A stretch of DNA of 64,000 nt from a phage: sequence record PX880103.1; one strand, written 5' to 3'. The stretch's first letter is position 1. Every line of letters begins with the position of its first letter. Both the position numbers and the translations under genes were made by a program. This document shows, in pieces, positions 1 to 17,875 of the stretch. The notes under the pieces are model-generated. The model had not been told where the DNA came from. It did not search any database and saw only the letters and a list, made by a program, of their open reading frames with translations.

Positions 1-2314
<2,314 letters not shown>

Positions 2315-2342
2315 TATTAAAGCATATTAAAGAGGATTAAAA

Positions 2343-4322
2343 ATGACTTTATTATCTCCGGGCATTGAGCTCAAAGAAACTACGGTTCAAAGCACCGTGG
2401 TTAATAACTCTACTGGTACAGCAGCTTTGGCCGGTAAATTCCAGTGGGGTCCTGCTTTTCAGATTAAACAGGTTACAAATGAAGTAGATTTAGTTAATAC
2501 TTTTGGTCAACCAACCGCTGAAACTGCTGACTATTTTATGTCTGCGATGAATTTCTTGCAGTACGGAAATGACTTACGAGTAGTTCGTGCTGTTGATAGA
2601 GATACCGCTAAAAACTCATCACCAATCGCCGGTAATATTGAATACACAATTTCTACCCCAGGTAGTAACTATGCGGTTGGAGATAAAATCACGGTCAAAT
2701 ATGTTTCAGATGATATTGAAACTGAAGGTAAAATTACTGAAGTAGACGCAGATGGAAAAATTAAGAAAATTAATATTCCTACTGCAAAAATTATCGCTAA
2801 AGCGAAAGAAGTCGGTGAATATCCAACACTAGGTTCTAACTGGACTGCGGAAATTTCTTCATCTTCCTCTGGTTTAGCTGCAGTAATAACTCTTGGAAAA
2901 ATTATTACTGATTCTGGTATTTTATTAGCTGAAATTGAAAATGCTGAAGCTGCTATGACAGCGGTTGACTTTCAAGCAAATCTTAAAAAATATGGAATTC
3001 CAGGAGTAGTAGCGCTTTATCCAGGAGAATTAGGCGATAAAATTGAAATTGAAATCGTATCTAAAGCTGACTATACAAAAGGAGCTTCTGCATTACTCCC
3101 AATTTATCCAGGTGGTGGTACTCGTGCATCTACTGCCAAGGCAGTGTTTGGGTATGGACCGCAAACTGATTCACAGTACGCTATTATAGTTCGTCGCAAT
3201 GATGCTATTGTTCAAAGCATTGTTCTTTCAACTAAGCGTGGTGAAAAAGATATTTACGATAGTAACATCTATATCGATGACTTTTTCGCAAAAGGTGGCT
3301 CAGAATATATTTTTGCAACTGCACAAAACTGGCCAGAAGGCTTCTCTGGAATTTTAACTCTGTCTGGTGGATTATCATCAAATGCTGAAGTATCAGCAGG
3401 AGATTTGATGGAAGCTTGGGACTTCTTTGCTGACCGTGAATCCGTTGATGTTCAACTGTTTATTGCAGGTTCTTGTGCCGGTGAATCTTTAGAAACAGCA
3501 TCTACTGTCCAAAAACACGTCGTTTCAATTGGGGATGCTCGCCAAGATTGCTTAGTATTGTGCTCTCCTCCACGTGAAACTGTAGTTGGAATTCCTGTAA
3601 CTCGTGCAGTAGATAACTTAGTCAATTGGAGAACCGCAGCAGGTTCATACACTGATAATAACTTTAATATCAGTTCAACCTACGCAGCAATTGATGGTAA
3701 CTACAAGTATCAGTATGACAAATATAATGATGTGAATCGTTGGGTTCCATTAGCAGCTGATATTGCTGGTTTATGCGCAAGAACTGATAACGTTTCTCAT
3801 ACTTGGATGTCTCCAGCTGGTTATAATCGTGGCCAGATTCTTAACGTTATTAAACTTGCTATTGAAACTCGCCAAGCTCAGCGCGACCGTTTATATCAAG
3901 AAGCTATTAACCCGGTAACTGGTACAGGTGGTGATGGTTACGTATTGTATGGTGATAAAACAGCTACTTCTGTTCCTTCTCCATTTGATCGTATTAACGT
4001 TCGTCGTCTGTTTAATATGTTGAAAACGAATATCGGACGTAGTTCAAAATATCGTTTGTTCGAATTAAACAACGCGTTTACTCGTTCATCATTCCGCACA
4101 GAAACTGCCCAGTACTTGCAGGGAATTAAAGCTCTCGGTGGAATTTATGAATATCGTGTAGTTTGCGATACAACAAATAACACTCCGTCAGTAATTGATA
4201 GAAATGAGTTTGTTGCAACATTCTACATCCAACCGGCGCGCAGTATAAATTATATTACTTTGAATTTCGTCGCAACTGCTACCGGCGCAGATTTCGATGA
4301 GTTAACTGGTCTTGCAGGTTAA
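2343..4322 (+). CDS. 18: contractile tail sheath protein gp18
   Basis: 659 aa as in T4 gp18; TATAAATA late promoter upstream; synteny. Confidence 0.95.
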   Translation: MTLLSPGIELKETTVQSTVVNNSTGTAALAGKFQWGPAFQIKQVTNEVDLVNTFGQPTAETADYFMSAMNFLQYGNDLRVVRAVDRDTAKNSSPIAGNIEYTISTPGSNYAVGDKITVKYVSDDIETEGKITEVDADGKIKKINIPTAKIIAKAKEVGEYPTLGSNWTAEISSSSSGLAAVITLGKIITDSGILLAEIENAEAAMTAVDFQANLKKYGIPGVVALYPGELGDKIEIEIVSKADYTKGASALLPIYPGGGTRASTAKAVFGYGPQTDSQYAIIVRRNDAIVQSIVLSTKRGEKDIYDSNIYIDDFFAKGGSEYIFATAQNWPEGFSGILTLSGGLSSNAEVSAGDLMEAWDFFADRESVDVQLFIAGSCAGESLETASTVQKHVVSIGDARQDCLVLCSPPRETVVGIPVTRAVDNLVNWRTAAGSYTDNNFNISSTYAAIDGNYKYQYDKYNDVNRWVPLAADIAGLCARTDNVSHTWMSPAGYNRGQILNVIKLAIETRQAQRDRLYQEAINPVTGTGGDGYVLYGDKTATSVPSPFDRINVRRLFNMLKTNIGRSSKYRLFELNNAFTRSSFRTETAQYLQGIKALGGIYEYRVVCDTTNNTPSVIDRNEFVATFYIQPARSINYITLNFVATATGADFDELTGLAG

Positions 4323-8754: not shown

Positions 8755-10320
8755 ATGACTATCAAAACTAAAGCTGAACTTTTGAACAAATGGAAGCCAT
8801 TACTGGAAGGTGAAGGTTTACCGGAAATTGCTAATAGCAAACAAGCGATTATCGCTAAAATCTTTGAAAACCAGGAAAAAGATTTCCAGACAGCTCCAGA
8901 GTACAAAGACGAAAAAATTGCTCAGGCATTCGGTTCTTTCTTAACAGAAGCTGAAATCGGTGGTGACCACGGTTACAACGCTACTAACATCGCTGCTGGT
9001 CAGACTTCTGGCGCAGTAACTCAGATTGGCCCAGCTGTTATGGGTATGGTACGTCGTGCTATTCCTAACCTGATTGCTTTCGATATTTGCGGTGTTCAGC
9101 CGATGAACAGCCCAACTGGTCAGGTATTCGCACTGCGCGCAGTATATGGTAAAGACCCAATCGCTGCCGGCGCTAAAGAAGCATTCCACCCAATGTATGG
9201 TCCAGATGCAATGTTCTCTGGTCAGGGTGCTGCTAAGAAATTCCCAGCTCTGGCTGCTAGCACACAAACCGTTGTAGGTGATATCTATACTCACTTCTTC
9301 CAGGAAACTGGTACTGTGTATCTGCAGGCTTCTGCTGTAGTAACAATCGATGCTGGTGCATCTGACGCAGCTAAATTAGATGCAGAAATTAAGAAACAAA
9401 TGGAAGCTGGTGTACTGGTAGAAATCGCTGAAGGTATGGCTACTTCTATCGCTGAACTCCAGGAAGGTTTCAACGGTTCTACCGATAACCCATGGAATGA
9501 AATGGGCTTCCGTATCGATAAACAAGTTATCGAAGCTAAATCTCGTCAGCTGAAAGCTGCTTACTCTATCGAATTAGCACAAGACCTCCGCGCTGTTCAC
9601 GGTATGGATGCTGATGCTGAACTGTCTGGTATTCTGGCTACCGAAATCATGCTGGAAATCAACCGTGAAGTTGTTGATTGGATTAACTACTCAGCTCAGG
9701 TTGGTAAATCTGGTATGACCCTGACTCCAGGTTCTAAAGCTGGTGTATTTGACTTCCAGGATCCGATTGATATTCGTGGTGCTCGCTGGGCGGGTGAATC
9801 CTTTAAAGCTCTGTTGTTCCAGATTGACAAAGAAGCAGTTGAAATTGCTCGTCAGACCGGTCGTGGTGAAGGTAACTTCATTATCGCTTCCCGTAACGTA
9901 GTTAACGTTCTGGCTTCAGTTGATACCGGCATTTCTTATGCTGCACAGGGTCTGGCTACCGGCTTTAACACTGATACTACCAAGTCAGTATTTGCTGGTG
10001 TTCTGGGTGGTAAATACCGTGTATATATCGACCAGTATGCTAAACAGGATTATTTCACTGTAGGTTATAAAGGTCCGAACGAAATGGATGCTGGTATTTA
10101 CTATGCTCCATATGTAGCTCTGACTCCGCTGCGTGGTTCCGATCCGAAGAACTTCCAACCAGTAATGGGATTCAAAACTCGTTACGGTATCGGTATCAAC
10201 CCATTTGCAGAATCCGCTGCTCAGGCTCCGGCTTCTCGCATCCAGAGCGGTATGCCTTCTATTCTGAATAGCCTTGGTAAAAACGCTTACTTCCGCCGTG
10301 TATATGTTAAAGGTATCTAA
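8755..10320 (+). CDS. 23: major capsid protein gp23 (precursor)
   Basis: 521 aa as in T4 gp23; LTE|A processing-site context at residue 65; strong hairpin terminator downstream. Confidence 0.96.
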   Translation: MTIKTKAELLNKWKPLLEGEGLPEIANSKQAIIAKIFENQEKDFQTAPEYKDEKIAQAFGSFLTEAEIGGDHGYNATNIAAGQTSGAVTQIGPAVMGMVRRAIPNLIAFDICGVQPMNSPTGQVFALRAVYGKDPIAAGAKEAFHPMYGPDAMFSGQGAAKKFPALAASTQTVVGDIYTHFFQETGTVYLQASAVVTIDAGASDAAKLDAEIKKQMEAGVLVEIAEGMATSIAELQEGFNGSTDNPWNEMGFRIDKQVIEAKSRQLKAAYSIELAQDLRAVHGMDADAELSGILATEIMLEINREVVDWINYSAQVGKSGMTLTPGSKAGVFDFQDPIDIRGARWAGESFKALLFQIDKEAVEIARQTGRGEGNFIIASRNVVNVLASVDTGISYAAQGLATGFNTDTTKSVFAGVLGGKYRVYIDQYAKQDYFTVGYKGPNEMDAGIYYAPYVALTPLRGSDPKNFQPVMGFKTRYGIGINPFAESAAQAPASRIQSGMPSILNSLGKNAYFRRVYVKGI

Positions 10321-13211: not shown

Positions 13212-13280
13212 GTTATCGAGTTGGTGCCATTATATACATCATTTTCTGATTGTGTTTTGCGTGCTTTCAAAATGAAGAAA

Positions 13281-13294
13281 GGGGCCGAAGCCCC
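13281..13294 (-). terminator. terminator hairpin downstream of hoc
   Basis: GGGGCCGAAGCCCC; minus-strand RNA has a UUCG loop then a U-rich tract. Confidence 0.6.
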
Positions 13295-13300
13295 TTACGA

Positions 13301-15007
13301 TTATGGATAGGTATAGATCATACCAGTTTCTAAAGCAGTTTTGTGAATGATGTATCCATTACGCGATTCTTGGACATCAACTTCTGGATAGTCTTTCATC
13401 ATTTTCTGAAGAGTGTAACGATGCAGGTAGTATTTACTATCTGGATCTTCAGTTTTCCAATCTTTACCTTCTTCAGTCATTTTTTGGATTTCATCCATAA
13501 CCCACCAACCGCACCAGATGTAAGCTGAAGTACGATGTGGAAGAGGATGAACATAAGGTAATTCACCTTCTGGTTCCGGAGCAACTTTATCAGTTACCTG
13601 GACTTGACCTTCTGCTGTAATAGTTTTGCTATCATAGTCAACTGCAGTAACGACGGCAGTCACTTCAATAGTTTGACTTCCAACAGATGAAGTATCAACG
13701 GTATATACATTAGTTGATCCTTCTACTGGAGAAGAATCTTTCTTCCATGAATATTCAATTTGCGCTTCTTCTGGAGCATCAGTGACATTAGCAGTAAATG
13801 TAGCCGAAGCATCTTGTTGAACGTTAATAGAAGGAGGAGTCAATGTAACCTGTGGATTCATTGTCTTCTTATTAACCGTTAATGATACTTCATTAGAAGT
13901 AACTGTTTTTGCGTCATAATCCGTTGCTGTTACTTGGGCTACGCATTTAATTTTTTTAACTCCAACTGCAGTAGGAGTATAGTTAAATGTAGCGGAAGTT
14001 GCTTCACTAATTTGTGAATCATCTACATACCACTGATACGTAGCAGATGCTCCATCAGGTTGAGAAGCTAAAGCGGCGGTAAATTCAACAGCTGTTCCAA
14101 TTACTCCGGCACCAGGATTAGCAGGAGTTACAGCTAGGGTAGTCGTTTGTGTTTTCTTGTTAACAGTCAAAGATACTTCATTCGAAGTAACTTCCTTTTC
14201 ATTGTAATTTTCTGCAGTTACTTGAGCTACGCATTTAATTATTTTTACTCCACTTGTAGTTGGAGTGTAATTGAACGTAGCATTAGTTTCTCCAATAACT
14301 TGAGAACCGTCAACATACCATTTATATGTAGCAGATGCTCCAACGGGTTGAGAAGCTAAGGCAGCAGTAAATTGAACTGGGGTTCCGATTACTCCCGCTG
14401 GAGGACTATCAGGAGTTACTGCCAAAGTAGTTGTCTGCTCCTTTTTATTAACAGTCAGTGATACTTCATTCGAAGTAACGCTTAGTGCATCATAATCTGT
14501 CGCAGTTACTTGAGCCACACACTTAATTCTTTTTACGCCGCTTTCGGCAGGAGTGTAATTGAATGTAGCAGAAGTTGCTTCGCCCACAGGAGAATCATCT
14601 ACATACCATTGATAAGTAGCGTTTGCGCCCGATGGCTGCGAAGCTAAAGCGGCTGTAAATTGAACAGCTGTTCCAATTACTCCAGCGTCAGGGCTATTAG
14701 GAGTTACAGCTAAGGTGGTCGTTTGTGTCTTATTTTGAACTGTGATAGTTGTAGTAGCTTCTGCTGTTTCAGCTTCAGCTTCTGGAACTGTATTTGTTGC
14801 AACTACTTTAATAGTCTTTTGACCGGCAGGCCCCTTTAATACATAATTAAAAGTTGCTTCAGCTCCATCTTGTGGAACATTATCTACGCTCCAAGCATAT
14901 GTAATAGTTCCACCTTCAGTTTGACCACTGGGTGCAGCAGTAAACTGCTTGGTTTCATCAATAACCCCTGTCGGTGTTTTAGGAGTTATATCAACTGTAA
15001 AAGTCAT
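13301..15007 (-). CDS. hoc: Hoc outer capsid decoration protein, expanded to five Ig-like modules
   Basis: 568 aa; N- and C-termini match my recollection of T4 Hoc (376 aa); three ~96-aa near-identical tandem Ig-like repeats plus two diverged ones. Confidence 0.9.
   Translation of the reverse strand: MTFTVDITPKTPTGVIDETKQFTAAPSGQTEGGTITYAWSVDNVPQDGAEATFNYVLKGPAGQKTIKVVATNTVPEAEAETAEATTTITVQNKTQTTTLAVTPNSPDAGVIGTAVQFTAALASQPSGANATYQWYVDDSPVGEATSATFNYTPAESGVKRIKCVAQVTATDYDALSVTSNEVSLTVNKKEQTTTLAVTPDSPPAGVIGTPVQFTAALASQPVGASATYKWYVDGSQVIGETNATFNYTPTTSGVKIIKCVAQVTAENYNEKEVTSNEVSLTVNKKTQTTTLAVTPANPGAGVIGTAVEFTAALASQPDGASATYQWYVDDSQISEATSATFNYTPTAVGVKKIKCVAQVTATDYDAKTVTSNEVSLTVNKKTMNPQVTLTPPSINVQQDASATFTANVTDAPEEAQIEYSWKKDSSPVEGSTNVYTVDTSSVGSQTIEVTAVVTAVDYDSKTITAEGQVQVTDKVAPEPEGELPYVHPLPHRTSAYIWCGWWVMDEIQKMTEEGKDWKTEDPDSKYYLHRYTLQKMMKDYPEVDVQESRNGYIIHKTALETGMIYTYP
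13858..14722. repeat. three diverged tandem ~288-bp repeats encoding Ig-like modules within hoc
   Basis: Protein repeats 2-4 are ~80-90% identical; the DNA copies are clearly related but diverged. Confidence 0.75.
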
Positions 15008-15016
15008 AAGTTATCC

Positions 15017-15697
15017 TTATTTTAATGTTACGAAAGAAGAATTACGTGTTTCACGAATTAGAACTGATCCGTCGCGATTAATGTAATAAATTAAGCTAAA
15101 TAAAGTTTGGTGCGCAGACGCATGTTCAAAACTAGTTGGGTGAGATTTCCAATCTGGAGTTTCAGCAATCCATTGGTAAATCCACCAAGGAACAGTGCAG
15201 AATCCTGGATTTTTTCCAATCAGCTGAAGATTTGGGCTAAAGTTTTCCGGAAGAGTAAATACAGACGGCTTTTCAGATTCAATAATCTCAGCTACAGACT
15301 GCTCGAATTTTTCTTCAACAAAAGAAGTATCTTCAATCAAAACATCGGTATTTTCAGGAATTTTATCCATTTCTACTACTTCAATTTTAATGTCAGATTT
15401 AACCGGAGAATCAATCAGAAGTGCTGCCTCTGGATTGACTTCTTCATCGTCATATTTTAATCCGTCTGCGGCATCAGCAGCATCAATTAAGTCTTTAATA
15501 GATAACCCATCAGTCTCTGGCATAGGTTCACTAGCGAGCTTCTGGAGGGCTTCTTCAATATCATTAACGATATTATCAAAAGATTTATTCTTTTTGACCT
15601 TTATACCAAACTGTTCAGCATATTCAGCTAATTTAGCTTTAGCTTCTTTATTATCATCAAGAGCCTTCAGCTCTGCAATATAATCTTTATCTATCAT
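15017..15697 (-). CDS. inh: Inh, inhibitor of prohead protease
   Basis: 226 aa as in T4 Inh (hoc.1); directly upstream of hoc. Confidence 0.85.
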   Translation of the reverse strand: MIDKDYIAELKALDDNKEAKAKLAEYAEQFGIKVKKNKSFDNIVNDIEEALQKLASEPMPETDGLSIKDLIDAADAADGLKYDDEEVNPEAALLIDSPVKSDIKIEVVEMDKIPENTDVLIEDTSFVEEKFEQSVAEIIESEKPSVFTLPENFSPNLQLIGKNPGFCTVPWWIYQWIAETPDWKSHPTSFEHASAHQTLFSLIYYINRDGSVLIRETRNSSFVTLK

Positions 15698-15746: not shown

Positions 15747-16364
15747 ATGTACCACTTTGTATACGAAACAACAAATCTAATAAATGGTAAAAAGTATATA
15801 GGAAAGCACTCTACTGACGACCTGAATGATGGCTACCTTGGTTCCGGTAAGGCAATTCAGCAGGCTATAAAGAAATATGGTGAAAACAATTTCTCTAGAA
15901 AAATACTAAAAGAGTTTAAAACTTCCGAAGAAGCGTACATGTATGAAGAAGAAATTATAACTCCTGAACTAATAAAAAGCAAAAATTATTATAATATGAA
16001 ACCTGGTGGAATTGGTGGAATTGTTATGACTACAGAGGTTATAGCAAAGATGAAAGAATCTTCCGCTAAGAGATTTGAAAACTCACCTGGTACGGTATTA
16101 GGTACAACTTGTTACACTAATGGAACTAAAAATATTTTTATTAAGCCTGGAGAACTTGTTCCAGAAGGATTTGTAAAAGGGATGGTTCATCCTAATAGAA
16201 AGTCCAGAAAAGGATGCAAAGTCAAACCGACTACAACAGGAACTTTTTGGGTCAATAATGGCGCAATAAATAAATTAATACAACCAGACGGTATTATTCC
16301 CGACGGATTTATTAAAGGTCGTCTCATGAAAAGAGATTCTAAAGGCAAATTTAGTAAGGCATAA
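15747..16364 (+). CDS. segE: GIY-YIG homing endonuclease (Seg family)
   Basis: 205 aa; N-terminal GIY-YIG module (YIGKHSTDD...GYLGSGK); free-standing between inh and uvsW, where I recall T4 segE. Confidence 0.75.
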   Translation: MYHFVYETTNLINGKKYIGKHSTDDLNDGYLGSGKAIQQAIKKYGENNFSRKILKEFKTSEEAYMYEEEIITPELIKSKNYYNMKPGGIGGIVMTTEVIAKMKESSAKRFENSPGTVLGTTCYTNGTKNIFIKPGELVPEGFVKGMVHPNRKSRKGCKVKPTTTGTFWVNNGAINKLIQPDGIIPDGFIKGRLMKRDSKGKFSKA

Positions 16365-16366
16365 TT

Positions 16367-17875
16367 ATGGATATTAAAGTACATTTTCACGACTTCAGTC
16401 ATGTACGCATCGATTGTGAAGAGAGCACGTTCCACGAATTAAGAGATTTCTTTTCGTTTGAGGCCGATGGATATAGGTTTAATCCTCGCTTCAGATATGG
16501 CAACTGGGATGGACGAATCCGTCTTTTAGATTATAATCGTCTTCTTCCATTCGGCTTAGTCGGGCAAATTAAAAAGTTCTGTGATAACTTTGGCTATAAA
16601 GCCTGGATTGACCCGCAAATTAACGAAAAAGAAGAATTATCAAGAAAAGATTTTGATGAATGGCTTTCTAAATTAGAAATCTATTCAGGAAATAAAAGAA
16701 TTGAACCACACTGGTATCAAAAAGATGCAGTGTTCGAAGGATTAGTTAATCGTCGTAGAATTCTTAATCTTCCAACATCCGCTGGTAAATCTTTAATTCA
16801 AGCTTTGCTTGCGCGATATTATTTGGAAAATTATGAAGGTAAAATTCTTATCATTGTTCCAACAACTGCTCTGACAACTCAGATGGCTGATGACTTCGTT
16901 GACTATCGTTTATTCAGTCATGCAATGATAAAGAAAATTGGTGGCGGAGCATCAAAAGATGATAAATATAAAAATGATGCACCAGTCGTTGTTGGTACAT
17001 GGCAAACTGTAGTTAAACAACCGAAAGAATGGTTCTCACAGTTTGGAATGATGATGAATGATGAATGCCATCTTGCTACAGGAAAAAGTATTTCATCTAT
17101 CATATCAGGATTAAATAATTGCATGTTTAAATTTGGTTTGTCTGGTTCATTACGTGATGGAAAAGCCAATATCATGCAGTATGTTGGAATGTTTGGTGAA
17201 ATATTTAAGCCAGTAACGACTTCTAAATTAATGGAAGATGGACAAGTAACTGAGCTAAAAATTAATAGTATTTTTCTTCGCTATCCCGATGAGTTCACTA
17301 CTAAATTAAAGGGAAAAACTTACCAAGAAGAAATAAAAATTATTACTGGGCTTAGTAAAAGAAATAAATGGATCGCTAAATTAGCTATTAAGCTTGCGCA
17401 AAAAGATGAAAATGCTTTTGTCATGTTTAAACATGTGTCACATGGTAAAGCTATTTTCGATTTAATTAAAAATGAATACGATAAAGTTTATTACGTATCA
17501 GGGGAAGTTGATACCGAAACCCGCAATATAATGAAAACCTTAGCTGAAAACGGTAAAGGAATAATTATAGTAGCTAGTTATGGTGTATTTTCTACTGGTA
17601 TTTCAGTTAAAAATCTGCATCACGTTGTTTTAGCGCACGGTGTTAAATCAAAAATCATTGTATTACAAACAATCGGTCGTGTATTACGTAAGCATGGTTC
17701 TAAAACAATCGCAACTGTCTGGGACCTCATAGATGATTGCGGCGTTAAGCCAAAATCTGCTAATACGAAAAAGAAATATGTTCATTTGAACTATCTTTTA
17801 AAACACGGCATTGATCGTATTCAGCGCTACGCAGATGAAAAATTTAATTACGTAATGAAAACAGTTAATTTATAA
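16367..17875 (+). CDS. uvsW: UvsW DNA helicase
   Basis: 502 aa; Walker A (PTSAGKS) and DECH box; synteny. Confidence 0.92.
   Translation: MDIKVHFHDFSHVRIDCEESTFHELRDFFSFEADGYRFNPRFRYGNWDGRIRLLDYNRLLPFGLVGQIKKFCDNFGYKAWIDPQINEKEELSRKDFDEWLSKLEIYSGNKRIEPHWYQKDAVFEGLVNRRRILNLPTSAGKSLIQALLARYYLENYEGKILIIVPTTALTTQMADDFVDYRLFSHAMIKKIGGGASKDDKYKNDAPVVVGTWQTVVKQPKEWFSQFGMMMNDECHLATGKSISSIISGLNNCMFKFGLSGSLRDGKANIMQYVGMFGEIFKPVTTSKLMEDGQVTELKINSIFLRYPDEFTTKLKGKTYQEEIKIITGLSKRNKWIAKLAIKLAQKDENAFVMFKHVSHGKAIFDLIKNEYDKVYYVSGEVDTETRNIMKTLAENGKGIIIVASYGVFSTGISVKNLHHVVLAHGVKSKIIVLQTIGRVLRKHGSKTIATVWDLIDDCGVKPKSANTKKKYVHLNYLLKHGIDRIQRYADEKFNYVMKTVNL

Follow-up and report, generated by a model that had tools for sequence, protein, structure and literature searches.

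Hoc, which decorates the mature head as single monomers placed centrally on the gp23* hexamers, 155 to a capsid, serves as the T4 display vaccine platform and is the prototype for phage mucus adherence. In T4 itself the protein (376 aa; PDB 5vf3/8t1x), for which an AlphaFold and cryo-EM model is available, is a linear fibre of ~180 Å with four domains (PMC10385173). The number of Ig-like domains strung together in its homologues varies, from one in Enterobacter phage PG7 to 10 in Serratia phage Muldoon (1174 aa; PMC10385173), and a two-Ig variant without domain 3 (D3) has been characterised in PNJ-9 (PMC11853027). Like the Hoc described here, these proteins combine a conserved capsid-binding domain with a variable Ig string; however, they are distant homologues with other domains, whereas the variation considered below concerns the copy number of one domain in phages that are 97-98% identical elsewhere. 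Neither an explicit account of a 376/472/568-aa polymorphism or of a Tequatrovirus domain-2 duplication, nor a test of its consequences, was found in the literature searched (including PMC10385173, PMC11853027, PMC13390416, PMC10580926 and PMC9958956).

In this study, we analyzed a 64,000-nucleotide stretch of phage DNA (sequence record PX880103.1; hereafter the window), whose source is, judged from its sequence, a Tequatrovirus (T4-like phage). The protein of interest matched T4 Hoc (phmmer, E=3.1e-259) and PHROG 1149 'Hoc-like head decoration' (E=1.9e-150). A Pfam PKD match lay above the gathering threshold (53.2 vs 23.5 bits) and was accompanied by other Ig-family matches, with Ig_3/I-set found at aa 385-467. 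Comparison of the window ORFs with the annotated loci of T4, PST, A6-6, ECML-123-2, teqskov and RB7 gave the gene order inh - hoc - 24.3 - 24.2 - rnlB on one strand, which agrees with the T4, PST, RB7, teqskov and A6-6 loci. The name hoc, which a first-pass annotation had assigned from the bare sequence, is thus confirmed by the T4 Hoc and PHROG 1149 matches and by the inh / 24.3 / rnlB neighbourhood. The flanks of the gene (13.3 kb upstream and 20 kb downstream) were 97-98% identical to RB3/RB5-type phages and others, whereas hoc itself appeared as a local hot spot of divergence, with ≤95% identity to any record and mostly 86-89%. The features of the locus are listed in Table 1.

Table 1. Features of the hoc locus and of its docking partner in the window (positions are those of the window).
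Feature	Position	Strand	Remarks
gp23, major capsid protein (Hoc docking partner)	8755..10320	+	almost identical to T4 gp23, 521 aa
Intrinsic-terminator-like hairpin AAGGGGCTTCGGCCCCTT plus T-run	13269..13296	-	strong; 5 nt past hoc stop
hoc CDS	13301..15007	-	568 aa + stop; ORF list, T4 Hoc PDB match, PHROG 1149
C-terminal capsid-binding domain	13304..13576	-	aa 478-568; 97% identical to T4 Hoc 286-376
Ig-like domain 3 (T4 numbering), fifth module	13577..13864	-	aa 382-477; 86% identical to T4 D3
Domain-2 unit 3	13865..14152	-	aa 286-381; 98% nt identity to Pu-Krd-SF4 unit 2
Domain-2 unit 2	14153..14440	-	aa 190-285; probably chimeric, putative out-of-register recombination junction at ~14336-14341
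Domain-2 unit 1	14441..14728	-	aa 94-189; 97% nt identity to teqskov unit 1
Ig-like domain 1 (D1)	14729..15007	-	aa 1-93; forms the distal fibre tip; 90% identity to D1 of T4 Hoc
Shine-Dalgarno AAGGA	15014..15018	-	6 nt upstream of hoc ATG; overlaps inh stop codon; read from sequence
inh	15017..15697	-	
uvsW-like helicase	16367..17875	+	

According to the ORF list, the hoc frame starts with ATG and contains zero internal stops. T4 Hoc (PDB 5vf3_Z, 376 aa) aligned to its product twice, with T4 residues 1-189 corresponding to aa 1-189 and T4 residues 93-376 to aa 285-568. Thus, the 192 aa by which the window protein exceeds its T4 counterpart represent two further copies of T4 domain 2, which gives three such modules where T4 has one. 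Tandem Repeats Finder reported a period of 288 nt in 3.0 copies at 13862-14728 (75% matches, score 972), and each domain-2 unit is 96 aa long, exactly in frame, and spans xQTTTLAVTP to SLTVNKK. The length of 568 aa against 376 aa in T4, the coordinates, the motifs and the three repeats of ~96 aa (TTTLAVTP...SLTVNKK) that the first-pass annotation had given were all correct by the ORF list and the T4 alignment. It was also right in describing the DNA copies as diverged, but wrong in calling the repeats near-identical: pairwise identity among the three units was 77-84% for protein and 73-79% for DNA. The differences fell mostly at third codon positions, and the longest exact words common to any two copies were 15-21 nt. 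With Nei-Gojobori dS of 0.90-1.21 and dN/dS of 0.12-0.15, every domain-2 copy is kept under purifying selection. A pseudogene or a decaying repeat was ruled out by these dN/dS values and by the lack of stops.

To place this layout among T4-like phages, Hoc lengths were surveyed in the 120 best-scoring protein clusters (90% identity). More than two thirds of them (82) had 376 aa, 29 had 472 aa and seven had 568 aa, with single clusters of 468 and 570 aa. At the DNA level, 60 of the 657 matching phage records (593 full-length overall) were sampled at even steps, of which 52 contained full-length hoc. The gene was 1131 bp long with one domain-2 unit in 35 of these 52 records (~67%), ~1419 bp with two units in 15 (~29%) and 1707 bp with three units in 2 (~4%). 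The comparison of lengths across T4-like genomes that had been suggested along with the first-pass annotation therefore yields three classes, of 376, 472 and 568 aa, with one, two and three domain-2 units, respectively; no Hoc longer than 570 aa was present among close relatives in the matches listed. The two-unit class (teqskov, Pu-Krd-SF4, PST, PhiZZ30, wV7 and others) belongs to the same family and uses the same 288-nt unit, one unit fewer. The three-unit layout was found in eight 568/570-aa clusters among the best 120, including Escherichia phages UGKSEcP1 and UGKSEcP2, and at the DNA level in A6-6 (PQ510734; 95.2% identity over the full 1707 nt) and ECML-123-2 (OL631480). These three-copy relatives, together with the metagenomic proteins P0001-P0006, have five Ig modules like the window protein and share 89-96% protein identity with it, but none is identical to it, and unit types and order differ; for example, P0002, P0003 and P0005 carry another unit-3 type. 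The exact window sequence was absent from the databases searched (best protein match 96%). The five-Ig allele class is already in GenBank and in metagenomes under generic names, and this gene is a further member of it. The finding is correct but ordinary, and a specialist would be little surprised by it.

D1, the three domain-2 units and D3 could all be aligned with one another, with an invariant core of T9, P10, F24, T25, A26, Y39, W41, D44, G64, I68, A72 and T75; D1 and unit 2 shared 37% identity. AlphaFold2 predicted five all-beta modules over aa 1-470 of the full chain (pLDDT ~77-93 in 10-residue blocks), and modelled the C-terminal domain poorly (pLDDT 43-65; shallow alignment). When unit 2 was modelled alone, pLDDT reached 91.2 and pTM 0.82, and Foldseek matched this model to CD22, the phi29 capsid BIG domain, PKD and FN3-like modules. 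When the whole chain was compared with the PDB by Foldseek, the only matches were to generic multi-Ig/MG-domain strings (complement C3, DSCAM), for which the global rmsd is meaningless. The shared core residues, the all-beta prediction and the Ig-like model of a single unit support the view that the N-terminal part of Hoc is a string of five Ig-like modules, as the first-pass annotation had claimed. It had named repeats that do not fold in this way as the result that would speak against it; in the structure check they were predicted to be all-beta and Ig-like.

The gp23-contact residues of T4 Hoc and the docking loop of gp23 are conserved in the window. All 16 gp23-contact or conserved residues listed for T4 Hoc (Y293, H295, H299, R300, Y304, W306, W309, W310, D313, Q354, E355-S356-R357-N358-G359 and Y360; Fokine et al. 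2023, PMC10385173) were present at +192, and residues 326-344 of the window gp23, which form the Hoc docking region, were identical to those of T4 gp23. We strongly infer that Hoc docks at gp23* hexamer centres as in T4. Since the C-terminal domain was modelled poorly here, this docking assignment rests on the 97% identity of the last 91 aa to the solved T4 domain.

If each Ig module adds ~4.5 nm and the modules lie in a line, the fibre would reach ~27 nm, compared with ~18 nm in T4. Each fibre would expose the domain-2 surface three times, and a capsid would display 775 Ig-like modules (155 x 5), compared with 465 in T4. The window Hoc has a computed mass of 60.8 kDa, a pI of 4.53 and a net charge of -27 (40.4 kDa, 4.74 and -14, respectively, for T4 Hoc). 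The S-L-T residues of the NEVSLT strand have been reported as essential for MUC2 binding by domain 2 of PNJ-9 Hoc (PMC11853027), and this strand occurs in all three window units (aa 180, 276 and 372); however, SLT lies within the last beta strand, so that the PNJ-9 mutants may act through domain unfolding, and the motif should be taken as a lead only. Among 123 distinct units, variable positions clustered in predicted loops (11-14, 33, 45-54, 61-63 and 77-83), the mean entropy being 0.58 bits for loops against 0.26 for strands, which is a weak difference (Mann-Whitney p=0.04). Compared with the window protein, Hoc sequences from the databases averaged ~98% identity in the C-terminal domain, 94-95% in D3 and 82-88% in D1, while domain-2 units were 77-92% identical both between and within copy classes. 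Conservation of Hoc declines from the capsid outward. These patterns of variation would fit an exposed ligand- or antibody-facing fibre, but they do not tell whether adhesion is tuned, antigens are diversified or copy number drifts neutrally. A longer and more multivalent fibre with altered reach, glycan or cell-surface avidity and antigenicity is plausible; the first-pass annotation had likewise suggested that a longer fibre could change adherence to mucus or cell surfaces and immunogenicity. Natural alleles with three, four and five Ig modules in near-identical phages provide a ready-made series for tests of fibre length and valency, which could address mucus retention, bacterial encounter rates and antibody neutralisation. 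It is also evident from these alleles that the capsid tolerates additional Ig modules.

What is new beyond the first-pass annotation is the probable origin of the array, as read from a register-shifted mosaic. Domain-2 units can be sorted into a small number of types, which recur in one-, two- and three-copy proteins and differ in loop patches such as TDYDALS, TDYDAKT and ENYNEKE. At the DNA level the window units were 94-98% identical to units of two-copy alleles, and the 5' third of unit 2 resembled unit 2 of teqskov, after which it was 98-100% identical to unit 1 of Pu-Krd-SF4 (SF4). We modelled the whole 1707-nt gene with two breakpoints and these two extant two-copy alleles. The resulting three-segment mosaic, whose "parents" are the closest sampled relatives only and not proven ancestors, reproduced hoc with 46 mismatches (97.3% identity), whereas A6-6, the best-matching three-copy relative, fitted worse (82 mismatches). 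CDS nt 1-234 followed SF4 in register (3 mismatches), nt 235-666 followed teqskov in register (12 mismatches), and nt 667-1707 followed SF4 again, shifted by exactly one 288-nt unit (31 mismatches). The window gene can be described as an SF4-like allele to which a teqskov-like unit appears to have been joined out of register. The register shift lies at CDS nt 666-671 (window 14336-14341). It directly follows a stretch of ~70 nt in which hardly any base differs between teqskov unit 2 and SF4 unit 1, which supplies the homology required for an unequal crossover. A mosaic with a shift of exactly one unit indicates unequal homologous recombination, and the three-unit array most likely arose by out-of-register recombination between two-copy alleles.

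Such an event would begin with long-diverged lineages of domain-2 units that already circulated in one- and two-copy alleles. A mixed infection would bring two two-copy alleles together, and an unequal crossover shifted by exactly one 288-nt unit would then add a unit while frame and domain boundaries were preserved. As the array would join pre-existing unit lineages, the divergence of neighbouring units would reflect the age of the lineages rather than gradual change after a duplication in place. The direction of the event is ambiguous, as two-copy alleles could equally derive from a three-copy allele by reciprocal deletion, and the most parsimonious view is that three- and two-copy alleles interconvert by out-of-register recombination between co-infecting phages. 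One specific candidate, in which SF4 is the window allele minus unit 1, does not fit, since the 5' part of SF4 unit 1 resembles window unit 2 more than it does window unit 1. In all, it seems highly probable that the window contains a functional Tequatrovirus hoc with T4-like docking, five Ig modules and an array derived from out-of-register recombination, and the register-shifted mosaic offers a concrete, testable route for a change in module number.

Assemblies are notoriously prone to errors at tandem repeats, and the lack of an exact database match might also raise the suspicion that a repeat was expanded or mis-joined and that the real gene encodes 376 or 472 aa. However, the copies differ at 21-27% of their bases and share no exact word >21 nt, so that reads can be placed unambiguously; the frame is intact with purifying selection on each copy, and the three-unit layout recurs in at least nine other independent assemblies. 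An artefact is so improbable that it can practically be neglected, and the dS and dN/dS values and this recurrence uphold the earlier view of the gene as an established allele. Another alternative is that ancient tandem duplications took place within one lineage and that the copies diverged slowly in place, without unequal recombination between alleles. The dS of ~1 between copies does imply old unit lineages, the units of the window and A6-6 are positional orthologues (95-98%), and mean identities retain some positional signal, unit 1 of three-copy proteins resembling unit 1 of two-copy proteins and unit 2 resembling unit 2. On the other hand, duplication in place does not account well for the match of window units to two-copy units at a different register, nor for the register-shifted mosaic as the best fit to the gene. 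Unit order also varies among three-copy alleles, the window's unit-3 type being found in position 2 in UGKSEcP1/2 and ECML-123-2; P0002 matches D1 and unit 2 of the window protein without a difference and unit 1 with a single residue changed, yet has a different unit 3; and the flanking D3 and C-terminal part of the window protein are closest to one-copy proteins. Thus, we consider purely in-place duplication very unlikely and favor recombination between two-copy alleles.

Several readings can be given of what the number of units means for the phage. Copy number could be selectively neutral, with one, two and three units as interchangeable by-products of the very high recombination rate of T4-like phages: genomes that are otherwise 97-98% identical differ in which of the three classes they carry, copy class is unlinked to the flanking domain alleles, record metadata revealed no obvious host association, and Hoc is dispensable in the laboratory (PMC9958956). 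Against this, the extra units are under purifying selection despite a cost of 288 bp each in a headful-packaged genome, variation is concentrated in loops, and single Hoc substitutions alter mucus adherence according to PMC11853027, which cites Chin et al. 2022 for it. Purifying selection on the fold would nevertheless be compatible with a neutral number of units, and we regard neutrality as possible, if somewhat doubtful. It appears quite unlikely that antigenic variation or immune evasion is the main driver, with shuffled and multiplied domain-2 cassettes diversifying the most immunogenic capsid surface. The outward drop in conservation and the patchy, cassette-like variation of domain 2 would accord with it, but additional copies of a similar epitope offer no obvious escape from antibodies, and diversifying ligand specificity predicts the same pattern. 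A more general and rather speculative reading, which we would hold only tentatively, treats the domain-2 array as an adaptive cassette system, in which old loop-variable lineages would be reshuffled and their number reset to 1, 2 or 3 by register-shifted recombination in mixed infections; no description of such a system was found in the literature searched. If this were true, fibre reach, glycan avidity and antigenicity would be tuned to the mucosal niche, and synonymous divergence (dS ~1, shared words ≤21 nt) would be favored as a means of stabilising the array against deletion. In bacterial surface adhesins with tandem Ig-like/Rib/Big modules, homologous recombination changes the number of in-frame modules, on which the reach of the fibre depends. 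The Hoc array, read in this adaptive way, would be a viral counterpart of this variation in repeat number. The likeness is an analogy, since Hoc is viral, monomeric and docked non-covalently on the capsid, with no sign here of rapid phase-like switching.

Regarding expression, no T4 late promoter consensus (TATAAATA) was found on the minus strand from hoc up to 18380, and a scan for sigma-70-type promoters gave matches below the shuffled expectation. Transcription of hoc presumably depends on read-through from further upstream.

Several database records of hoc deserve comment. In Yersinia phage PST (KF208315, locus 1501-2920), hoc spans 1420 nt and has one base extra, which breaks the frame, whether by a mistake in sequencing or as a genuine frameshift; the deposited CDS is a truncated 930-nt annotation that begins inside the gene. 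ECML-123-2 contains an intact 1707-nt three-unit hoc ORF (locus 1501-3207) without CDS annotation. The longest hoc span found was that of Shigella phage KNP5 (KX452698, 109965-112036), where the match extends over 2072 nt in four pieces within a 193.6-kb record and could represent an allele with four or more units, an insertion or a misassembly. In T2-type records (phage T2, SV76) the hoc region is annotated as three separate CDS fragments. The T2 capsid is said to be without Hoc, with which this fragmented annotation would fit.

Finally, a GIY-YIG Seg-type homing-endonuclease ORF of 205 aa (15747-16364, plus strand) is located between inh and the uvsW-like helicase gene. An ORF of this type is also present at the T4 and PST loci and missing from the three-copy A6-6 and ECML-123-2, in which the helicase directly adjoins inh. 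Lying ~0.7 kb from hoc, this mobile endonuclease could promote local gene conversion.
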